DNA from: an uncultured Alphaproteobacteria bacterium
GTDB taxonomy: Bacteria > Pseudomonadota > Alphaproteobacteria > Caulobacterales > Aquidulcibacteraceae
Length of the DNA stretch: 32,000 nucleotides
Assembly (NCBI GenBank): GCA_902826335.1
Contig: CADEEL010000018.1
Span: 27,515-59,514 of the forward strand
Direction of reading: 5' to 3'
Of this stretch, positions 409-9,540 are shown one piece after another. The notes below the pieces were generated by a model. The model saw only the letters and a program-made list of their open reading frames with translations, was not told where the DNA came from and made no database searches. The stretch's first letter is position 1, and each line of letters opens with the position of its first letter. Made by a program: the position numbers and the translations under genes.

Positions 409-1392
409 TCAGGCGGGATTGCGGCGCACGCGCAGCCGCACCGGTTGATGATCCGAATGCGCGAAGCCGAGGGGCACGCCGCTCACCTCCAGCGCCTCCA
501 GGTCCGGCGAGAGCACGAAACCGTCAATCACGCTGCGGTAATTTTCACCTTCCACGTAAGGCTGATTGTTGGTGCGGTTGGAGGGCGTGGCCGCGTCCGC
601 CGCGATGCGCCAGCCCGCCGGCAGCGCCTCATCGGGAAACTCATGCACCCAAAAGAGATGCTCTTGCGCGGTGGTGTGCGGGAACGCCGTATCGACCAGG
701 AGATAATTGAAATCGCCGCCAAGCACCACGGAGCGTCCGCTCGCGTGCTCGCGCTCGGCGAAATCCATCAGCGCCGCCAATTGCCGCCGGCGCGTCTGCG
801 CGCCTTCATCGAAGGCCGAGAGATGCAGGGAGACGATGGTCCAGGCCGGCGCGATGCGCGCCACGACGAGGCCGTAATGACGCATAACGACGCCCGCCAT
901 GCGGTTCGGCTCATCGGGCAGGCGCACCACTTCGGCCGATTGCAGCGCGTAACGGGAATAGAGCCCCGGCCCGTGCACCAGCCGCAGCGGCGGCGGCCAG
1001 AAGCGCGTGCGCACATCGGCGTAAAACACCCGGTCAAAAGCGGTGAGCGCGCGATTCACGCCGCCGCGTACATCATGCCAAAGCGTCATCGGCCCAGGCG
1101 CGGCGAGTTCCTGGATGCAATACACGTCCGCTGGATTGGCGCGCAGAGTCGCTTCGATGCCGGTGAGATTACGCGTGACCGAGGCGCGCGAAGGCGGCAA
1201 TAGCCGTGCCCCGCCATCGGCGCGGAAATCAGAATCCGCGCCGAGCCCCGCATAGCCCAAATTCCAGGTGACGATGGTGAGTTCGTTGGGCGCCTCCCCG
1301 GCCGTCTCGCCCCGCCCGATGCGCAGATCGCGCGCATGGGCGGGCGACATCGAAGCGACCAAGAGCGCGACGCAGAGTGCAAGTTCCTTCAT
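409..1392 (-). CDS. Secreted endonuclease/exonuclease/phosphatase (EEP) family protein
   Basis: ORF 409..1488, trimmed to ATG 1392, which gives signal peptide MKELALCVALLVASMSPAHA. EEP hallmarks IVTWNLGY near the N-terminus and GFAHSDHQPV near the C-terminus. Lies directly upstream of phoD on the same strand. Confidence 0.8.
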   Translation of the reverse strand: MKELALCVALLVASMSPAHARDLRIGRGETAGEAPNELTIVTWNLGYAGLGADSDFRADGGARLLPPSRASVTRNLTGIEATLRANPADVYCIQELAAPGPMTLWHDVRGGVNRALTAFDRVFYADVRTRFWPPPLRLVHGPGLYSRYALQSAEVVRLPDEPNRMAGVVMRHYGLVVARIAPAWTIVSLHLSAFDEGAQTRRRQLAALMDFAEREHASGRSVVLGGDFNYLLVDTAFPHTTAQEHLFWVHEFPDEALPAGWRIAADAATPSNRTNNQPYVEGENYRSVIDGFVLSPDLEALEVSGVPLGFAHSDHQPVRLRVRRNPA

Positions 1393-1426
1393 GGCGACCT
1401 CGATGGGCTGGCGCATATTCTCCCCT

Positions 1427-1469
1427 TGTGGGAGAGGGAAGCGCGCACCGGCGCGCCCCTTCTCCCACA
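1427..1469. repeat. Long GC-rich imperfect hairpin (about 19-bp arms, ACCG loop) between the divergent EEP gene and rluD
   Basis: TGTGGGAGAGGGAAGCGCGC-ACCG-GCGCGCCCCTTCTCCCACA. The arms are complementary apart from one shifted base. REP-like appearance. Confidence 0.55.
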
Positions 1470-1506
1470 CAGGGCGAAGGCGCGCCACTCAGAGAGCGCT
1501 GGCGCC

Positions 1507-2544
1507 TTGAACCAAGATGACGAAGAGCCCTCTGAGCCCGGATCGATCCGGAGCGTGATCGCGCCGCCGCAGGCGGCCGGCGCCCGCGTGGACGCCTGGC
1601 TGGTGGAGACATGGCCGGATCTGTCGCGTGCTCGCGTGCAGGGGCTCATCGGCGCGGGAAAGCTGAGCGCCGACGGCGCGCCGGTCACACACGCGTCCAG
1701 CAAGGTCCGCGCTGGCGCGACCTATGAGCTGGCGCTGCCGCCGCCTGAGCCGGCCGCGCCCGAACCAGAGCCAATCCCGCTCCAGGTCATGTTTGAGGAC
1801 GCGCACCTCATCGTGGTGAACAAGGCGGCCGGCATGGCCGTTCATCCCGCGCCCGGCTCGATGCGCGGCACGCTGGTCAATGCGCTCTTGGCGCATTGCG
1901 CGGCGAGCCTCTCGGGCATTGGCGGCGTCGCCCGCCCGGGCATCGTCCATCGCATCGATAAGGATACGACGGGCCTTATCGTCGCCGCCAAGACGGATGC
2001 GGCCCATCAGGGCCTCGCCAGGCTCTTCGCCAAACATGACCTCGAACGCGCCTATTACGCCATCGCGCGCGGCGCGCCGAAGCCGCGCACGGGAACCATC
2101 GACAATCGCCTCGTCCGCTCAAGCGAGGATCGGCGCAAATTCGTCGTCGTGCGCGATGCATCCTCGGAAGCCGGCAAGCGCGCCATCACGCGCTATTGGA
2201 CGGTCGAGCCATATGGCCAGATCGAGGGTGCGCCGGCTGGAACGCCGGCCGCGTCCCTGCTCGAATGCCGATTGGAAACCGGCCGCACGCATCAAATTCG
2301 CGCGCATCTCGCTCATCTCGGCTGCCCGCTGATCGGCGATCCGCTGTATGGCAAGTTTCGCGGGCTGAAAGCAGCGGGCGCGCATGCGCCGGCGGCGGAG
2401 GAAGCCGCGCGCGTCTTTCCGCGTCAGGCGCTCCACGCCGCGATCCTTGGCTTTGCGCACCCGATCACCGGCGCGGAGTTGCGCTTCGAAGCGCCGCTGC
2501 CAGGGGATATGACGACGCTGCTCGAAGCGCTCCGCACCTTGTAG
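1507..2544 (+). CDS. rluD: 23S rRNA pseudouridine synthase, RluA/RluD family (S4 domain plus catalytic domain)
   Basis: ORF 1336..2544. RVDAWL...[10 protein letters not shown] (S4-like), [10 protein letters not shown] catalytic motif, [14 protein letters not shown]. There is no in-frame ATG after 1336, so I chose the in-frame TTG at 1507 (345 aa). The start is uncertain. Confidence 0.85.
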
Positions 2545-2557
2545 CGCCGCGCGCTAC
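2541..2557. other. Perfect palindrome GTAGCGC-CGC-GCGCTAC carrying the stop codons of both convergent genes
   Basis: The rluD TAG (2542-2544) and the TAG of the minus-strand 2554..3675 gene (2554-2556) each sit in one arm of a 7-bp stem with a 3-nt loop. Confidence 0.5.
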
Positions 2558-3675
2558 ATGATGAACTTCGCCTCGTGGTTCGAATTGAGAAAGCTCACCA
2601 TCTCCGCATAGGACAAATCCTCCAGCTCCTTGAGCGCCGTCAATTTCTCGGCGGAGCTGTTCGCACCGCGGAATCGCGCGCGAATAAGCCGAAGCGATGC
2701 GCTGTACTGGCGATAGCGTTCCACCTCCCTGTGCGGCTGCAGCCCCTCTTCAAGCGTTCTGAGCGCCAGCGCGACGATCGCGAACGAGATCGCCCCGCAA
2801 TGCGCGAGCACCAGCAGGAGGGGCGCCGCGCCGGCCGCGACGCCGATCAGAACCAGCACGTCCAGAACCAGCAACATCAGCACGCAGCCGAGCGCCGCTC
2901 CATCGATGATCTTGATCTGCTGAAACGGCAGCTTCGAAAACAATTTCGCATCGGATGACAACATGTACTCCGCGAAATCGATTTGATGATCGATGCGCAA
3001 ATGCGCCAGCGCGTCGAGAAATCCGTTGAGATGCGCGCCTTGCGCCGCCGCCGGATCGAACGCGACATCGAGGAGCCAGGGCTCCTCGCCGACATCGCGA
3101 TTGAGCACGCCGGCGAGCTTGGCGTCCAAGTGAGCGAGTTGTTCGCTGTCAAAGCGCGCGAGAGCCGCCGCCCGCGCCTTCAGGAACGGCGTGCGATCCC
3201 CGCTTTCAGCCGCCTTCATCACCAGGGGCGCCAGCGCGACCAGCGACTGGAAGTGCAATTGCCGCAGCCGCTCGGTCGCGAAGCGATTGCGCAGCCAGGC
3301 GTGTTTCGCTTCGCCGAACAGAACACCGCTAAGCCCAAGATAGCCGCCGATGAGGCCCAGCGCCGCGCCCGTCGCGGCCAGCGCCTGGCGCAGCCACAGC
3401 GGTTCGTGCTCGCTGAGCGGCATCCATGCGGTGATGAGCAGTGCCACGGCCACCATGCACACGGCTTCGATTCCGCGCCGCCGGCCAAGTTTCTTGGCGG
3501 CGTTGGCCGCATCGTCGATCGGCTCAAAGAGGGCGCGCAGTTCGGGATGATCGAGCGCGAAGGCGATATCGGGATAGGCGGCCTGCGCGCTGTTGCGATC
3601 GGGCTCACTGCGCAGCAGGTCCGAGTTGAATCTAAATCCGGCGCTCATGCCCTCAAGCCCCATTTCGCCCAACAT
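2554..3675 (-). CDS. 4-TM membrane protein made of two SLATT/DUF4231-like 2TM modules (putative pore-forming effector)
   Basis: 373 aa. Module 1: basic KKLGRRRG, TM about aa 69-85, TM about aa 96-120, then amphipathic AWLRNRFATERLRQLHF. Module 2: HQIDFAEYML, TM about aa 255-280, TM about aa 284-305, then REVERYRQYSASLRLIRARF. Positive-inside rule puts all soluble parts in the cytoplasm. The family assignment is pattern recognition only. Confidence 0.5.
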   Translation of the reverse strand: MLGEMGLEGMSAGFRFNSDLLRSEPDRNSAQAAYPDIAFALDHPELRALFEPIDDAANAAKKLGRRRGIEAVCMVAVALLITAWMPLSEHEPLWLRQALAATGAALGLIGGYLGLSGVLFGEAKHAWLRNRFATERLRQLHFQSLVALAPLVMKAAESGDRTPFLKARAAALARFDSEQLAHLDAKLAGVLNRDVGEEPWLLDVAFDPAAAQGAHLNGFLDALAHLRIDHQIDFAEYMLSSDAKLFSKLPFQQIKIIDGAALGCVLMLLVLDVLVLIGVAAGAAPLLLVLAHCGAISFAIVALALRTLEEGLQPHREVERYRQYSASLRLIRARFRGANSSAEKLTALKELEDLSYAEMVSFLNSNHEAKFIM

Positions 3676-3757
3676 CGCCGGCTCATCCCAGCCCCTCGCC
3701 GGATGACGCGGCGGCCCGCCCCTGCTAGATTCACTACAAGCTCCGGGGCTTCATGGG

Positions 3758-4378
3758 TTGATAGACGTTTTCATCTCCTACGCGCGCCGCAACCGCGATC
3801 AAGTGCTGGCGATCAAAAAGCTGCTCGATGACAAGGGCCTCGACGTCTTTTTCGATGTGGAGGGCGGCGTCGATGGCGGCGATGTCTACACCGACGTGGT
3901 CGATCAAAAACTGCGCGAAGCCAAGGCCGTGCTCGGCTGCTGGACGCCGCACGCGCTGACGCGCCGCTGGATCAAGATCGAGTGCCACATCGCGCTCGAC
4001 CAGGACAAACTTGTGGTCGCCGAAATCGAGCGGATCAAGCAGGATGAGGTCCCTGCAGTCTTCTATCAAGTCAATCGCGAGGATCTGACCAGCTTTGCGA
4101 ACGATCCAAACCACCCCGCCTGGCGGCGCCTCGAAAATACACTCGCCAAGCGCTTCACCACCTGGGCGGAGCAAAACACCAGCGACCCCGAAGCGCGCGC
4201 CGCGCTCGCCAAGGCCGCGCGGCTTCGGGGCGATGGCGAGGCCCCGCGGCAAAGCCCGCCACCGCGCGCCGCGCATCCTTTGTTGCCAATTCCGCGTGAT
4301 CGCCTTGGGCTCTATCTACAGATCGGCGGCGGGGCGCTGGCGCTCATCGGCCTACTGATCATCGTCTCTGGCGGCTAA
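3758..4378 (+). CDS. TIR-domain protein with a C-terminal transmembrane tail anchor
   Basis: 206 aa with a TTG start. N-terminal DVFISYARRNRD (TIR_2-type box 1), GLDVFFD, AKAVLGCWTPHALTRRWIKIEC (S/T-x-W-x3-E block with the candidate catalytic Glu), then a linker and the TM LGLYLQIGGGALALIGLLIIV at the extreme C-terminus. Confidence 0.8.
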   Translation: MIDVFISYARRNRDQVLAIKKLLDDKGLDVFFDVEGGVDGGDVYTDVVDQKLREAKAVLGCWTPHALTRRWIKIECHIALDQDKLVVAEIERIKQDEVPAVFYQVNREDLTSFANDPNHPAWRRLENTLAKRFTTWAEQNTSDPEARAALAKAARLRGDGEAPRQSPPPRAAHPLLPIPRDRLGLYLQIGGGALALIGLLIIVSGG

Positions 4379-4662
4379 TCGCGCTTGCGGCGGAGATAGG
4401 TTCCCGCCGCCGCCGCGCCGGCGCCTGCAATCAGCAGGACGTATCCAACTGGACGGAACGATCCGCCGCCGCCGCTGCCGCCACACCGTGCGCGATCCGT
4501 CGGATCGGAATCAGCGACGCACCCGCTCCCCTGATAGGCGCGATCGGTCGGGTCGCTGTCGGTGATGGCGTGCGCGGCGCCCGCTGCGCCGCCGGCGCCC
4601 AGCGCCGCCCCCATGACGCGGGTGAAAAAGGACCTGCGGTTCAGGCGGCGCGTATTGTTCAT
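4375..4662 (-). CDS. Small Tat-signal protein with duplicated DSDPTDRA motif, Gly-rich segment and C-terminal TM plus basic tail
   Basis: ORF 4375..4722 trimmed to ATG 4662: MNNTRRLNRRSFFTRVMGAALGAGGAAGAAHA / ITDSDPTDRAYQGSGC VADSDPTDRARCGGSGGGG / VGYVLLIAGAGAAAAGTYL RRKRD. No family recognised. Confidence 0.55.
   Translation of the reverse strand: MNNTRRLNRRSFFTRVMGAALGAGGAAGAAHAITDSDPTDRAYQGSGCVADSDPTDRARCGGSGGGGSFRPVGYVLLIAGAGAAAAGTYLRRKRD
4597..4652 (-). repeat. Copy 1 of a 56-nt Tat-signal-encoding repeat (55/56 identical to 5872..5927)
   Basis: gcccagcgccgcccccatgacgcgggtgaaaaaggacc[t]gcggttcaggcggcgcg encodes RRLNRRSFFTRVMGAALG. Flanking sequence diverges. Confidence 0.9.
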
Positions 4663-4733
4663 AGATTGTATACTATCATGGCGGCGTCTGCCCGACCAAA
4701 CGTGCGCAGCGCAGACGAGCACCCAGCCGAGTG

Positions 4734-4757
4734 GATCGCCGATGATCCTCGGCGATC
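4734..4757. terminator. Perfect 9-bp stem / 6-nt loop hairpin between the TonB-C-like genes and the small Tat-signal gene
   Basis: GATCGCCGA-tgatcc-TCGGCGATC. No U-run follows on either strand, so terminator function is uncertain. Confidence 0.3.
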
Positions 4758-4865
4758 ACTAATGGGCACGCACGAATGGAAGCCGCCGTTCACGGCATGC
4801 TTATAATGTAGTCCAATGCAGCACGCAGTACCATTTGTTATCTGTGCGGCAAACTTGATGCACAG

Positions 4866-5150
4866 TTATTCCCGATGAAATCTCACTGTCGTGCGAACCT
4901 GATCGCCCGGCAATATGCCAAAATAGTCTACATTAGGTTCGCTGGATTCAAACCGCTCGACAACAGCGGCAGCAAGACCCCACCCCATCGGTGTCTCCCT
5001 CTCGGAGACGCATTCGAATTGGCGCTCAGTGCTCCAAGTACAGAGAATAACGACTTCACCCGCGATGCCGGCGGCGAGCGCTGCTGAGGGATAAAAATCA
5101 GTAGGCGCGTCGATCGGCGGCAACACAAATGGCGCCAGGCCGTCATACAT
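4866..5150 (-). pseudogene. Detached third TonB-C-like repeat with no signal peptide; probably split from the upstream ORF by a 1-nt frame difference
   Basis: ORF 4866..5291. From ATG 5150 it reads MYDGLAPFVLPPIDAPTDFYPSAALAAGIAGEVVILCTWSTERQFECVSERETPMGWGLAAAV, the same domain pattern as the two repeats in 5170..5937. No SD and no export signal. Low-GC DNA. Confidence 0.4.
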
Positions 5151-5169
5151 CCGGTTGAGCGACTCCAAT

Positions 5170-5937
5170 TCAGAGCGTGCGCCAAAAATTGACAGGAAGA
5201 AAAAATGGCGCGGTCTGGTGCGCCGCGACAAACTCCTGCTCGCGTTCGGAAACACGAAATTGCAGCGCAAGTTGCATCGCCGCTTCACCAAATCCGTATC
5301 CGGGCGGCGTTTCGCGAAACAGCTGGCAATTCAATGATCGGTCTTGACGTACAATACAGCGCAATACACCGCGACCACGAACGCGATCGCGTGCGGCCTG
5401 CCTAGGGTATGCATCCAACACAGCGAAGAAATTCGGCGCAGCCTCCCATATGGGTAAATTCGGCGACGATAGGGGAAATGTTTCTCCGCCAACGCGGAGT
5501 GAAGCCACGTCAGGAAGTGATCCTGCGCCATCTGGAAACAAGAAATTAATGGGCACGCGCAAATTCGCGCCGGCGACGGGTTCTCCGCCCCGCGTAGCCG
5601 GCGTCAATCGGAACAGCCGTGAGAGAGCCCGCGCCGCGTCGCCAAAGCCCCATCCTTCGGGTGACTCACTTCCGATTTCACAATTAGCGCGCGTATCGAG
5701 CTGGATTCTGCATTCTAAAATGACCCTGCCCACCACGCCCTGCTCAACCGCGGTTGGGGGAAAGTACAGCCACAGCATTTCACCGCTCGGCCGTTCAATC
5801 CACTGGGGTCTCTCAAAGTCAAGTGGTCGCGGGTCGCCTTGGGCAAGCGCCGCGCCGGTGCTCAGCGCGACGCCCAGCGCCGCCCCCATGACGCGGGTGA
5901 AAAAGGACCGGCGGTTCAGGCGGCGCGCATCGCTCAT
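5170..5937 (-). CDS. Tat-signal periplasmic protein with two TonB C-terminal-like domains
   Basis: ORF 5170..6003 trimmed to ATG 5937: MSDARRLNRRSFFTRVMGAALGVALSTGAALA. Two repeats follow the pattern P..A...G..GRV.L.C.....L..C......P.G.GFG.AA..L...FR..P (VVGRVILECRIQLDTRANCEIGSESPEGWGFGDAA and GRGVLRCIVRQDRSLNCQLFRETPPGYGFGEAA). Confidence 0.65.
   Translation of the reverse strand: MSDARRLNRRSFFTRVMGAALGVALSTGAALAQGDPRPLDFERPQWIERPSGEMLWLYFPPTAVEQGVVGRVILECRIQLDTRANCEIGSESPEGWGFGDAARALSRLFRLTPATRGGEPVAGANLRVPINFLFPDGAGSLPDVASLRVGGETFPLSSPNLPIWEAAPNFFAVLDAYPRQAARDRVRGRGVLRCIVRQDRSLNCQLFRETPPGYGFGEAAMQLALQFRVSEREQEFVAAHQTAPFFLPVNFWRTL
5872..5927 (-). repeat. Copy 2 of the 56-nt Tat-signal-encoding repeat
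   Basis: Identical to 4597..4652 except for one base (g instead of t). Confidence 0.9.
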
Positions 5938-6009
5938 GGCTATGATGTTAGCACCGCGCCGGCCCAGGCGCGACCGCCCCAAGACCGGGCCGCCCGCTTG
6001 CAAAGTGTA

Positions 6010-6510
6010 TTAAGCGGCGTTGTGTCCTCGCCGCCAGAGCGACAGGATCAAAGCGAGCACGAGCGCGCCGGACAACCCCCAATTGATCATTGCGCCCACG
6101 GACACCGCTTGGCCGGGGTCCGGCGGCAGACTCATCATCGATATCGCCGTGCGTCCGACCTGTTCGGCGCCAAGCGACAGGATCATCAGCGGCAACAAGG
6201 CGCGATAGCGCACGAGTGCAACGAGGCCGAGCAACGCCAGCATCAGTAGCGCCAGTCCCCATGCTTGAAACATAAACACAAGCAAGGCGGCGGCATTGGC
6301 GGGAAAAGTGTCGATGGGTACGCCGTCTGCGGCGTGTATGATGAACCGGCTGCTCACCCATGGATTTAGACCGGCGACGTTGAAACCCATCGCGGCCTTC
6401 ATCAGCACGACCGGAACCAAGAGCCAGATCGCGAGCCATTGGCCCCGATAAGAATTGTCGATCTGGCGTGGGAAAAGTAGTTCCAGCATCGTCTTTACCT
6501 CTCGTGTCAT
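6010..6510 (-). CDS. Small integral membrane protein (about 4 TM), function unknown
   Basis: ORF 6010..6699. I chose ATG 6510, which overlaps the upstream gene stop as ATGA. ATG 6489 is preceded by GAGAGG and is an equally good start. Hydrophobic segments include WLAIWLLVPVVLM, AAALLVFMFQAWGLALLMLALLGLVAL and WGLSGALVLALILSL. Confidence 0.55.
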   Translation of the reverse strand: MTREVKTMLELLFPRQIDNSYRGQWLAIWLLVPVVLMKAAMGFNVAGLNPWVSSRFIIHAADGVPIDTFPANAAALLVFMFQAWGLALLMLALLGLVALVRYRALLPLMILSLGAEQVGRTAISMMSLPPDPGQAVSVGAMINWGLSGALVLALILSLWRRGHNAA

Positions 6511-7304
6511 GCTGCGGCCGGCGCTGTGATTGCGGCGCGGTATTTTTTCGACAACCGCACGCGCAACAGCCAGAAGATAAGGAAAGGCAACGGCGCGAGT
6601 GCGGCGATGTAGAGCACGGGCGTGTCGCGCAGCCATTGCGGAAACACCTGCTGCTGGCCAAGGAACAGCGATCCCGCGGCGACGAACAGGCCAAAGCACA
6701 TGCGCCAGACATGGCGCGCAATGCGCTGGCCCCCCTCGATGCCGCGCCGCAGCACGAGTTTGAGATCCGACGCCGCTGCGATGAGACTGACGAACAGGAA
6801 AATGTAGAAGGCCTGCGGCGGCGCCCCATCAAGCGTGCCCTCCGGCGTGTTCGTAGCCATCCACGTCAGCGAGAGCGTCGCGATCAGGCCGCCAACAGCT
6901 ATGAACAACCCTAAGACTTCCAACGCGCCCACGCCTTGGCGCCGGCGCGCGGTCAGCCAACCGGTGAAAATGAGATAGAATGTCATAAAGCCGGCGACAG
7001 TCGAAATCCGATCGTGAAGGAACGGCGCCACCGCCCCGCCGATCCCCGACATGACAAGCATGGCGACGAGGAACACATTGCCCGCCCGCCGATGGAGCAG
7101 CCCGCCCTTACGGGCTAAGAGCGCGACGCCGCCGCTAAGAAGCCCCACCGTACCGCCGCCGATATGGAGATAGAGCAACGCATCGGCGCCCAGGTGCACC
7201 CACCAGGGCGCGCGCGCGGCCACTTCCAGACGATCCGCGTAGGCCGACCCCGCCAATGCGAAGCTCAAGCCTACAAAAGCCCACAAAAAACCCGTCCGTC
7301 GCAA
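6507..7304 (-). CDS. Integral membrane protein, DUF2306-like
   Basis: ORF 6507..7424. The first 40 codons are AT-rich and atypical and would crowd the divergent AraC start, so I propose the in-frame TTG at 7304 (AAGGA 8 nt upstream). Contains LYLHIGGGTVGLLSGGVALLARKGGLLHRRAGNVF and about 6 TM segments. The family call is tentative. Confidence 0.5.
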   Translation of the reverse strand: MRRTGFLWAFVGLSFALAGSAYADRLEVAARAPWWVHLGADALLYLHIGGGTVGLLSGGVALLARKGGLLHRRAGNVFLVAMLVMSGIGGAVAPFLHDRISTVAGFMTFYLIFTGWLTARRRQGVGALEVLGLFIAVGGLIATLSLTWMATNTPEGTLDGAPPQAFYIFLFVSLIAAASDLKLVLRRGIEGGQRIARHVWRMCFGLFVAAGSLFLGQQQVFPQWLRDTPVLYIAALAPLPFLIFWLLRVRLSKKYRAAITAPAAA

Positions 7305-7346
7305 CCTAGGTATCCTTGCCTGCCGTCGCGGCCAACCCCGCGCGCT

Positions 7347-7387
7347 GGACCGCCATATCGACTTGCGATAAATTATTACGGCGGTCC
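7347..7387. promoter_or_regulatory. Nested inverted repeat in the AraC / membrane-gene divergent region
   Basis: GGACCGCC-a-TATCG-acttg-CGATA-aattattac-GGCGGTCC: 8-bp outer arms, 5-bp inner arms, AT-rich centre. Confidence 0.3.
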
Positions 7388-7442
7388 GCGAGCAATTGAA
7401 CATGACGCCAAGCATCAAAAGCATGACCCAAGGCGACAGGCG

Positions 7443-8495
7443 GTGACGGCCGTCCTTTCGCGCGCCCAGCCCAAGATCGCCGCCGGATACCCGCGCGGCC
7501 TGGTTGAATTCGCGGTGCGCAAAGGCGCCAGCCGCGCGGCCTTGCTGACGCGGGCGGGTCTAACCGAGGCGGACCTGCGCCATCAGGACAATCATGTCGC
7601 GCTGGAGCGCTACCTCGCGCTGTTCGCCGCCGCCGCCGAATTGACGGGTGATCCTGCCATCGCCCTGCACTATGGCGAGGCCGTGCGCATGCAGGAAGTG
7701 TCGATCGTCGGCCTCATCTGCGAAGCGTGCGAGACGACGATCGATGTTGCGCGCGAAATCAATCGCTACGCCGCTCTGGTTGTCGATGACGACCGCGGCG
7801 AACCGGCGATGCTCATGCGCGGCGTACAGCGCGACGGCGGCGTCTGGATCGAGTTTCCGCACGATCTCTTCACCGCCAATCCCCCGATCGTCGAGGCGGA
7901 ATTCGCGCGTCTGGTCTGGAACGGCAGGATCATGTTCGCCAACACGCCTGAATTCCAAACCATCAAATATCCGCGCATCATTCAATTTCGCCACCCGGCG
8001 CCCAGCCATCGCTCCGAATATGAGCGCATTTTTCAATCGCCCGTCGTGTTCGACAGCCATTGGAACGCGATGCAAATCGATCCGGAATTTCTCGCTTTGA
8101 AGCAGCCGCCGGTGAACCGCTACGTCTTTGGCGTGCTGAGCGAACGGGCCGACGCGCTGTTGAAGAGCCTCGAAGACGCTAAAACCATGCGCGGCCGGGT
8201 CGAGAGCGTCCTTGTGCCGGTGCTCCACAAAAGCGAAGTCGACATGGATTTCGTAGCCCGCGAGCTGGGGCTGGGACGCCAGGCGCTGTATCGCGCCCTG
8301 AAAGCCGAAGGCCTCACCTACGAAGCCGTGCTCGACGCGCTCAGGCACCGGATGGCCCTTAACTACCTTGCGGAGCGAAAAGTCTCCGTCAACGAGGCTG
8401 CTTACCTTGTCGGCTTCTCGGAGCCGGCCGCCTTTTCGCGCGCCTTCAAGCGCTGGACGGGCATGAGTCCCAGCGAAACGCGCAAACGCTTGTAG
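7443..8495 (+). CDS. AraC/XylS-family transcriptional regulator with an N-terminal arabinose-binding-like (OruR/AdiY-type) domain
   Basis: ORF 7164..8495 has no internal ATG before the domain begins. In-frame GTG 7443 gives 350 aa. The C-terminal HTH_18 pattern is VSVNEAAYLVGFSEPAAFSRAFKRWTGMSPSETR. Confidence 0.85.
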   Translation: MTAVLSRAQPKIAAGYPRGLVEFAVRKGASRAALLTRAGLTEADLRHQDNHVALERYLALFAAAAELTGDPAIALHYGEAVRMQEVSIVGLICEACETTIDVAREINRYAALVVDDDRGEPAMLMRGVQRDGGVWIEFPHDLFTANPPIVEAEFARLVWNGRIMFANTPEFQTIKYPRIIQFRHPAPSHRSEYERIFQSPVVFDSHWNAMQIDPEFLALKQPPVNRYVFGVLSERADALLKSLEDAKTMRGRVESVLVPVLHKSEVDMDFVARELGLGRQALYRALKAEGLTYEAVLDALRHRMALNYLAERKVSVNEAAYLVGFSEPAAFSRAFKRWTGMSPSETRKRL

Positions 8496-8646
8496 GCGCC
8501 CCGGCGCCCTCTTTTCGCCGCCCACGGGTTTTAGAAATCCTATCCCCCTGCCCATGAAACCGGATGAAGGGCGGGCGCGTAAATACTATATGAATTCGTC
8601 AGCCCAGCCCGGCCCCCGCCGGCGCGGGGCGGGACCAGGGGATGAC

Positions 8647-9540
8647 ATGGCCTCCACCGCGCTCACGCTCGCGCTGTCGCCCGAACAGGGCCTGCAACGG
8701 TATCTCTCCGAGATCCGGAAATTCCCCATGCTCCAGAAGGATGAGGAATTCATGCTCGCCAAACGCTGGCAGGAGCACCAGGATTCCAAGGCGGCCCACA
8801 GGCTTGTCACGTCGCACCTGCGCCTCGTGGCCAAGATCGCCATGGGCTATCGCGGCTACGGCCTGCCGATCGGGGAAGTGATCTCGGAAGGCAATGTCGG
8901 CCTCATGCAGGCGGTCAAAAAATTCGATCCGGACAAGGGCTTTCGCCTCGCCACCTACGCCATGTGGTGGATCCGCGCCTCGATCCAGGAATACATTTTG
9001 CGCTCCTGGAGCCTCGTCAAAATGGGCACCACGGCGGCGCAAAAGAAGCTCTTCTTCAATCTGCGCCGCTTGAAGGGCGAAATCTCAGCGCTCGAGGAAG
9101 GCGATCTCAAGCCCGAGAACGTCAAGACCATCGCGCACAAATTAGCGGTGACGGAGGACGAAGTCGTCTCCATGAACCGGCGCCTGTCCGGCGGCGATGC
9201 AAGCCTCAACGCGCCGATCGCCTCCGACGGCGAATCCGAATGGCAGGATTGGTTGGCGGACGATACGCAGGAGAGCCAGGAATCGACGCTCGCCCGCACC
9301 GAGGAATTTGGCGCGCGTATGAGCTTGCTGCAGGCGGCGATGGCTGACCTCAGCGAACGCGAGCGTCACATCATAGAAGAACGGCGCCTGAAGGATGAGC
9401 CCGCCACTTTGGAGGATCTCTCCAAGGAATATGGCGTCTCCCGTGAGCGCGTACGCCAGATCGAGGTGCGCGCCTTCGAGAAACTTCAAAAGGCGATGAA
9501 GAAGCAGGCGCTGGAACGCGGGTTGGTGGAAGCAGAATAA
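8647..9540 (+). CDS. rpoH: RNA polymerase sigma-32 heat-shock factor RpoH
   Basis: ATG 8647 follows AGGGGA. Sequence LQRYLSEIRKFPMLQKDEEFMLAKRW, ISEGNVGLMQAVKKFDPDKGFRLATYAMWWIRASIQEYILRSWSLVKMGTTAAQKKLFFNLRR (RpoH box), and YGVSRERVRQIE in region 4.2. Confidence 0.95.
   Translation: MASTALTLALSPEQGLQRYLSEIRKFPMLQKDEEFMLAKRWQEHQDSKAAHRLVTSHLRLVAKIAMGYRGYGLPIGEVISEGNVGLMQAVKKFDPDKGFRLATYAMWWIRASIQEYILRSWSLVKMGTTAAQKKLFFNLRRLKGEISALEEGDLKPENVKTIAHKLAVTEDEVVSMNRRLSGGDASLNAPIASDGESEWQDWLADDTQESQESTLARTEEFGARMSLLQAAMADLSERERHIIEERRLKDEPATLEDLSKEYGVSRERVRQIEVRAFEKLQKAMKKQALERGLVEAE

Follow-up and report, generated by a model that had tools for sequence, protein, structure and literature searches.

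The closest described counterpart of the locus reported here is type VII Thoeris, the name given in December 2025 to a pairing of a TIR protein (ThsB) with a SLATT protein (ThsH) (Yirmiya et al., bioRxiv, doi 10.64898/2025.12.03.692087). Type VII Thoeris provides phage defence, works through the canonical cyclic ADP-ribose (cADPR) signal and shows cADPR-induced toxicity, and its ThsH was modelled as an oligomer that spans the membrane and has basic pockets on its cytoplasmic side (doi 10.64898/2025.12.03.692087). A link between SLATT proteins and enzymes that make nucleotide signals was predicted computationally, and PMC7159879 notes it again in conflict systems that contain TIR domains. In conflict systems that depend on nucleoside triphosphates, TIR effectors are accompanied by SLATT genes (PMC7159879). 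Here we describe a divergent gene pair from a 32,000-nucleotide stretch of DNA (the window) of an uncultured Alphaproteobacteria bacterium (Aquidulcibacteraceae; GenBank assembly GCA_902826335.1, contig CADEEL010000018.1, positions 27,515 to 59,514). One gene encodes a TIR protein that ends in a single transmembrane (TM) helix and the other a protein with four TM helices (the four-TM protein), and the pair looks like an unannotated variant of the TIR plus SLATT ("type VII Thoeris") systems. For comparison, ThsH was recovered from metagenomic loci using the published type VII TIR sequence. It has 290 amino acids and matches SLATT_3 (E = 8e-47, 159 bits) followed by SLATT_1 (E = 3e-38, 131 bits), and to judge from these matches ThsH is itself a tandem-SLATT four-TM protein.

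The TIR assignment is supported by both profile and structure. Pfam TIR_2 (PF13676) matched residues 4–111 of the 206-residue protein above its curated cut-off (E = 3.1e-14, 54 bits versus a cut-off of 28). An AlphaFold2 (AF2) model (pLDDT 81.8) has an alternating strand/helix pattern, and Foldseek returned SPARTA TIR-APAZ, SARM1, AbTir, MyD88, and TLR TIR domains at a probability of 1.0. With a score above the cut-off and a TIR (flavodoxin-like) fold, the protein is a member of the TIR domain family. The family profile matches the TIR domains of SARM1, AbTIR (both NAD-cleaving), and TcpB/BtpA with E values of ~1e-6 to 1e-7. Residues W71 and E75 are invariant across the TIR family, E75 in both the short form found in the window and the longer partners described below. 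In a HMMER alignment of the family profile with SARM1, 'rrWvktE' (window letters 'RRWIKIEC') pairs with 'KDWVHKE', which places Glu75, as judged from this alignment, at the position of the SARM1 catalytic Glu. The Glu of SARM1 'DWVHKE' is E642.

The TIR domain (residues 1 to ~135) is followed by a low-confidence proline-rich linker and a TM helix at residues 182–206. This last segment is strongly hydrophobic, is predicted to be helical, and lies at the extreme C-terminus. Its sequence, 'RLGLYLQIGGA..A.IGLL.IVSGG', is almost invariant in seven close short homologues, and the protein stops three residues after it. The window protein is a tail-anchored TIR.

The four-TM protein was modelled with AF2 on a 13-sequence alignment. 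The model is all-helical (pLDDT 88.8, pTM 0.84) and has two TM hairpins, formed by helices 44–83/93–118 and 250–281/285–312, in agreement with hydropathy; each hairpin is followed by conserved long amphipathic helices. The N-terminal module consists of a basic helix, TM1 (~67–90), TM2 (~93–118), and an invariant juxtamembrane helix that carries W127, R131, E135, R138, H141, and F142. The C-terminal module begins with a helix containing the invariant R227 and Q231, continues through TM3 (250–281) and TM4 (285–312), and ends in conserved 'LRTLEEGLQPxREVERYRxY' helices; G311, Y324, and E352 are also invariant. Both short inter-TM loops lack lysine and arginine and the long soluble parts are rich in them, so a cytoplasmic location of the soluble parts is plausible. 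An earlier note on this DNA, made from the letters alone, had described two genes with facing starts 82 bp apart, a TIR domain with a retained catalytic Glu and a C-terminal TM anchor, and a partner with four TM helices in two hairpin modules. All of these features were recovered, and the cytoplasmic placement of the soluble parts, which it also proposed, is compatible with the charge distribution.

A profile scan of 1.84 billion protein representatives identified 1155 family members at E <= 1e-3 and 498 at E <= 1e-30. Family size is a lower bound (at least 1155 clusters at 50% identity), and the family is much larger than the initial word-indexed search implied; a repeat of that search with a 56-sequence profile added almost no members. 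Nearly all of the 1155 representatives have 355–400 amino acids and were matched end to end. The representative search also returned a member of 709 amino acids (P0088) in which an N-terminal PrsW-type intramembrane protease is fused to a complete four-TM module.

Relationship to the SLATT/DUF4231 superfamily was assessed across 56 family members. SLATT_1 matches 47 of them (best E = 2.1e-10) and DUF4231 matches 28 (best E = 1.9e-8), with a few matched by SLATT_3, SLATT_4, and SLATT_5. For 47 of the 56, NCBIfam ranks a SLATT model first or matches nothing else; other families with two TM helices, such as DUF2207_C, match members as well. When the halves were searched alone, N-terminal halves matched SLATT_1 (E = 5e-6 to 0.02) over up to positions 8–97 of the 132-position model, and C-terminal halves weakly matched SLATT_1, SLATT_4, and SLATT_5 (E = 1e-4 to 0.1). 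In the AF2 model and by hydropathy, the protein shows the SLATT layout, a two-TM hairpin with flanking cytoplasmic helices, twice. To judge from these profile matches, the family probably belongs to the SLATT/DUF4231 superfamily as a divergent, two-module branch, and "tandem SLATT" is used for the window protein as a description of architecture and not of proven homology. The SLATT assignment made in the earlier note is thus backed by weak matches throughout the family, the window protein itself scoring below the cut-offs. Of its proposal of two SLATT-like copies, the two-module layout stands, and detectable homology between the halves does not: an internal duplication was evaluated by aligning the two halves with hhalign, which gave E = 0.019 over the TM hairpin only.

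We surveyed one genome per species in ~185,000 species representatives and found 45 loci encoding the four-TM family. Most are in Parvularculaceae, Caulobacterales, and other Alphaproteobacteria, and a few are in Gammaproteobacteria, Acidobacteriota, Actinomycetota, Planctomycetota, and Verrucomicrobiota. A TIR open reading frame (ORF) was identified by a TIR hidden Markov model in the neighbourhood of the four-TM gene in 27 of the 45. It is immediately upstream and divergent in 21, with 127–230 bp between conserved motifs where measured. All-against-all clustering of flanking genes revealed a single recurrent neighbour family, the TIR/FGS/STAND group (FGS, FGE-sulfatase-like domain). The divergent arrangement persists at 30%–40% protein identity while the flanks change. 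In the closest relative of the window pair (L005; 73% and 76% identity) the divergent pair is kept and the outer flanks differ. Pairing of the TIR and four-TM genes is conserved in many bacteria, and the proposal of the earlier note thus withstands the test it had set for itself, whether homologues are neighbours in other genomes.

Divergent partners share one architecture. In all 14 that are not cut by a contig end, an N-terminal TIR domain is followed by a short conserved helical motif, a proline-rich linker, a strong TM helix, a further linker, and a C-terminal FGS domain, with ~100 amino acids between the TIR domain and the TM segment. The FGS domain is nearest to periplasmic PvdO (E = 4e-59 to 5hha). 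Two lysines precede the TM helix, and for this reason the TIR domain is predicted to lie inside and the FGS domain outside, in the periplasm. Defence STANDs are known to use FGE-sulfatase-like domains as sensors (PMC13581612), and by analogy such a role would suit the FGS domain in the long partners.

Six further loci have other TIR partners: TIR-TPR (L050), TIR-NACHT (L031), TIR-nSTAND1-TPR together with Sel1 proteins (L040), a TIR protein of 1932 amino acids (L047), a TIR protein with two TM segments (L048), and a TIR ORF plus nSTAND1 (L025). A TIR domain was not detected in the partners of L043 (nSTAND1-FGS) or of L035, L038, and L042 (STAND-TPR). Among these, the nSTAND1 partners of L038 (966–4598), L042 (1130–4795), and L043 (1001–3931) have an N-terminal region of ~200 amino acids that matches the N-terminus of the PADLOC candidate PDC-S60 (E = 4e-8 to 6e-4) and may be an effector-like domain. 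An unusual architecture was observed in a metagenomic locus (L008; ORFs 3409–6000 and 6000–7934), where a fusion of TIR_2 with tRNA-synt_1c, the Glu/Gln-tRNA synthetase catalytic domain (863 amino acids), and a GAF protein of 644 amino acids are encoded immediately before a member of the four-TM family, on its upstream side and in the same direction.

The window TIR protein aligns with the long partners over the TIR domain (~30% identity) and once more over the TM helix, after which it ends. It lacks the FGS domain that proteins of the TIR-TM-FGS clade have after the TM helix, and no remnant of an FGS domain was identified in the window by tblastn (E > 1). The short form is conserved at 68%–78% identity in six other sequences, indicating that the tail-anchored TIR of the window, though minimal and truncated, has been maintained as a variant and is not the product of a recent truncation. 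A small gene is convergent with the short TIR gene through a 4-bp overlap of their 3' ends. The same arrangement is found in L005 (1156–1437) and L054 (677–964), and the small gene is kept in both despite differing outer flanks. It encodes a signal peptide like those of the twin-arginine translocation (Tat) pathway (RRLNRRSFFTRVMGAALGAG), DSDPTDR repeats, a C-terminal TM helix, and a basic RRKRD tail, and is a candidate third component of the short-TIR module.

Two observations concern the surroundings of the small gene. A 94-nucleotide direct repeat (83% identity; window 4593–4686 and 5868–5961) encodes near-identical Tat-like signal peptides at the 5' ends of the small gene and of a double TonB_C gene (5170–6003, minus strand), which suggests that a secretion-signal cassette was duplicated or recombined. 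Additionally, a stand-alone Macro-domain gene (174 amino acids) adjoins the trio of small, TIR, and four-TM genes in the two most closely related loci, L005 (571–1095) and L054 (995–1519); it is absent from the window, where no Macro remnant was found. Macro domains process ADP-ribose derivatives, and the gene could thus encode a partner that clears the signal, or its presence could be coincidental.

Homologues of the four-TM protein begin at the equivalent of its Met10, so the true start may be at 3648, which would widen the gap between the two genes to 109 bp. The intergenic region contains a promoter-like element, GGATGACGC-N14-GCTAGATTC (3703–3733, plus strand), ~25 nucleotides upstream of the TIR start and conserved in L005. 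It resembles the Caulobacter housekeeping promoter consensus (TTGACGS-N10-14-GCTANAWC). A scan of the intergenic region for E. coli-type sigma-70 promoters found no sites. The interval between the pair and the RpoH-like gene holds genes for membrane proteins, secreted proteins, and an AraC-type regulator. Two long same-strand membrane-protein ORFs in this interval (6010–6699 and 6507–7424, both minus strand; the second DUF2306-like) overlap by ~190 nucleotides, and at least one start codon is probably mis-set. GC content near the pair shows a dip, as the earlier note had described, which is mild (0.56–0.60 at 4501–5500 versus ~0.65 in the window). Pfam families were tallied among the 97 genes flanking TIR- or STAND-linked loci, and the commonest are rpoD (seven loci), dnaG (three loci), PepSY, and metabolic genes. 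The rpoD and dnaG loci are Parvularculaceae TIR-FGS/four-TM pairs that adjoin these genes (e.g., L014, L021, L024, L027, and L044). Coordinates in the window are collected in Table 1.

Table 1. Positions of the gene pair, its parts, and its neighbours in the window
Feature	Position	Strand	Description or basis
RluD-like pseudouridine synthase	1336-2544		Flank of the pair
Four-TM gene	2554..3675	-	373-amino-acid all-helical four-TM protein; ORF, AF2, family profile
C-module (residues 216-368)	2572..3030	-	AF2 helices, invariant columns
N-module (residues 44-147)	3235..3546	-	AF2 helices, hydropathy, invariant columns
Divergent intergenic region	3676..3757	.	Sequence, comparison of intergenic regions
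TIR gene	3758..4378	+	206-amino-acid tail-anchored TIR protein, TTG start
Glu75 codon	3980-3982	+	HMMER alignment to SARM1
C-terminal TM helix of the TIR protein (residues 182-206)	4301-4375	+	Hydropathy, predicted helix, conservation
Small gene (~95 amino acids)	4375..4662, ORF to 4722	-	Same position in L005 and L054
RpoH-like sigma factor	8554-9540		Other flank, beyond ~4 kb

These features can be combined into a model of membrane-bound TIR signalling. The single TM helix would hold the TIR domain at the cytoplasmic face of the inner membrane, and in most relatives it would join the TIR domain to a periplasmic, PvdO-like, non-catalytic FGS sensor. A trigger sensed at or beyond the membrane would cluster and activate the TIR domains, which would then cleave NAD+ to a cyclic ADP-ribose-type signal. 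This signal would bind the SLATT-like four-TM partner at its conserved cytoplasmic juxtamembrane helices, which are rich in Arg, His, and Trp, and the partner would oligomerise and breach or depolarise the membrane, leading to growth arrest or abortive infection. In the window version, the small Tat-exported membrane-anchored protein may supply the extracytoplasmic part in trans. Domain identities, the retained Glu, the TM segments, and the conserved pairing are results; topology, NADase activity or signal production, ligand binding by the four-TM protein, pore formation, and the trigger are proposals of the model. We give this model, in which a membrane-tethered TIR activated by a cue at or beyond the membrane makes an NAD-derived signal that the juxtamembrane helices of a membrane-permeabilising partner read, an even chance of being correct. 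A more specific version is unlikely in our estimate: that the module is an outside-in receptor, in which the fused FGS domain or the Tat protein in trans detects an event in the periplasm or at the envelope (for example, phage adsorption, DNA injection, or damage to the cell wall) and passes the signal through the TM helix to the TIR domain, opening the tandem-SLATT-like channel. If true, this would combine a topology in the style of Toll-like receptors with a pore effector and would act before the phage genome is expressed.

Several results weigh against a TIR-SLATT module of this kind. The four-TM protein of the window is below every curated cut-off, with 23.5 bits for NCBIfam SLATT_1 (cut-off 41) and 14.4 bits for Pfam DUF4231 (E = 0.05, cut-off 24.7), and no PADLOC model matches its family, which is left without annotation at Pfam, NCBIfam, or PADLOC cut-offs. 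A PDB search returned no comparable fold, and the SLATT link consequently rests on weak sequence signals. Direct homology of the family to ThsH was considered and rejected (profile comparisons, E = 0.16 and 0.044, neither significant), and the window genes are divergent, unlike ThsB and ThsH, which point the same way in the type VII loci L056 and L061. Approximately 14 of the 45 loci, as well as L006 and L007, have neither a TIR nor a STAND gene nearby. Restriction, CBASS, and other defence genes are not among the commonest families of the 97 flanking genes, a tally that was not a formal enrichment test. No homologue was found by tblastn on 72,556 plasmids or 50,697 phages. Because of its core-gene neighbours and the lack of plasmid or phage copies, the module is judged to be chromosomal and to hold a stable place among core genes, a setting not typical of defence islands; the accessory stretch in which the earlier note had placed the pair is instead a setting of housekeeping genes.

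Some of these observations would suit a module that has no anti-phage role, and instead is a vertically inherited alphaproteobacterial device for envelope or stress signalling or programmed death. The receptor-like TIR-TM-FGS protein would report a periplasmic cue and the four-TM protein would adjust permeability or ion flux. Its neighbours (rluD and rpoH here, rpoD and dnaG in Parvularculaceae) suggest a stable chromosomal position, the commonest neighbour families include no defence genes, and the FGS domain is nearest to periplasmic PvdO; absence from plasmids and phages agrees with this. We nevertheless find this doubtful, since TIR plus SLATT and TIR/STAND/FGS combinations characterise conflict systems, partner architecture shifts by lineage (TIR-FGS, TIR-TPR, TIR-NACHT, nSTAND1-FGS) in a manner typical of fast-evolving immune modules, and the family is patchy, occurring at 45 loci in the ~185,000 species representatives. 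That the adjacency has no meaning at all, the four-TM protein being a generic membrane protein and its SLATT matches noise from TM composition, is barely credible. All SLATT/DUF4231 scores of the window protein are below threshold, two-TM families such as DUF2207_C match too, and a third of the family loci lack a TIR. However, a rare domain occurs near the family in 27 of 45 loci from several phyla, the divergent order is kept at 30%–40% identity under changing flanks, and a SLATT model is the top or only NCBIfam match in 47 of 56 members; chance adjacency is strongly disfavoured by these conservation data.

The roles of the two proteins could also be reversed. The four-TM protein would then sense a membrane or envelope perturbation and control the TIR protein by TM-TM contact, and the TIR protein would act as effector and deplete NAD+, so that the cell dies or stops growing without a diffusible signal. 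Both proteins are integral to the same membrane, and the TM helix of the TIR protein is conserved beyond the needs of a mere anchor. The nearest TIR structures include the NAD-depleting SARM1, AbTIR, and SPARTA. Some four-TM members occur without a TIR, and one is fused to PrsW, from a membrane-stress sensor family. Against such a reversal, SLATT-type proteins are effectors in every characterised system, and the conserved charged cytoplasmic helices resemble a ligand site. Other loci pair the four-TM protein with soluble TIR-STAND proteins that have their own TPR sensors, which better fits the four-TM protein as the downstream effector. Direct contact with reversed roles is in our view improbable, and we favour the model in which the tethered TIR signals to a membrane-permeabilising partner.

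TIR plus SLATT signalling is already known and was recently validated with cADPR as type VII Thoeris. What is new here is a SLATT-like family that annotation has overlooked and whose partners include receptor-like TIR proteins that span the membrane; the window has a minimal form of such a TIR protein. This large tandem-SLATT-like family has been missed at the cut-offs of the three annotation resources, and its partners are either membrane-spanning TIR proteins with a predicted periplasmic sensor or TIR/STAND proteins. Provided that it is functional, the family would widen Thoeris-like immunity to include sensing that is tethered to the membrane and possibly extracytoplasmic, and the pair of 206 and 373 amino acids would be a compact test case for a TIR signal gating a SLATT pore. 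Such modules can sit among core genes, out of reach of discovery based on defence islands.

Among known receptors, the long partners are analogous to Toll-like receptors in joining a ligand-binding ectodomain to a cytoplasmic TIR domain by way of one TM helix. Unlike Toll-like receptors, they have the TIR domain at the N-terminus (the reversed order), an unrelated ectodomain, and a presumably enzymatic TIR domain, and the likeness is one of convergent architecture, not of whole-protein homology. Of the non-catalytic FGE-like proteins, PvdO is matched by the C-terminal domain of the long partners, where this domain is fused through a TM helix to a TIR domain; the window TIR protein has no such domain. 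We searched the literature and found no paper mentioning both a TIR domain and FGE-sulfatase and nothing on membrane-anchored Thoeris-type TIRs. With STAND/NLR-like defence proteins the link is through related loci, which pair the four-TM gene with TIR-nSTAND1-TPR, TIR-NACHT, or nSTAND1-FGS proteins. The window, by contrast, has neither a STAND NTPase nor an FGS domain, and the FGS domain of the main clade lies beyond a TM helix and is predicted to be in the periplasm, not the cytoplasm.

The SLATT/DUF4231 superfamily comprises pore-forming effectors with two TM helices in CBASS, DRT10/UG17, and GTPase-centric conflict systems. The four-TM family shares with it the hairpin with flanking helices, weak and consistent profile matches, and linkage to a TIR-type signal enzyme. 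It differs in its fixed two-module architecture of 365 amino acids, and the window protein differs in scoring below curated cut-offs.

The earlier note had not recognised the pair as any named defence system, a statement that the naming of TIR plus SLATT has made outdated, and it had missed both the FGS domain that most relatives carry and the conserved small gene. Its interpretation was largely right, yet the pair is neither unprecedented nor fully established as such a module. Differences from type VII Thoeris are several. The four-TM family (365 amino acids, compared to 290 in ThsH) has an additional conserved segment at its N-terminus and more sequence between its modules, and its SLATT matches are below threshold. 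The window TIR is of the TIR_2 type and is anchored in the membrane; ThsB is soluble and belongs to a different subfamily, the ThsB type, and the two are similar at superfamily level only (E = 8.5e-4). The housekeeping context is a further difference. Neither homology to ThsH nor a ThsB-type TIR in a common operon was found, and membership of the window pair in type VII Thoeris is not established. The two nevertheless have the same plan: two genes, encoding a small TIR protein with the W-x3-E catalytic motif and a four-TM protein of two two-TM modules, and in both a TIR signal is proposed to lead to SLATT oligomerisation and membrane damage. By this logic, the module may be described as a divergent relative of type VII Thoeris and of TIR-SLATT conflict systems.

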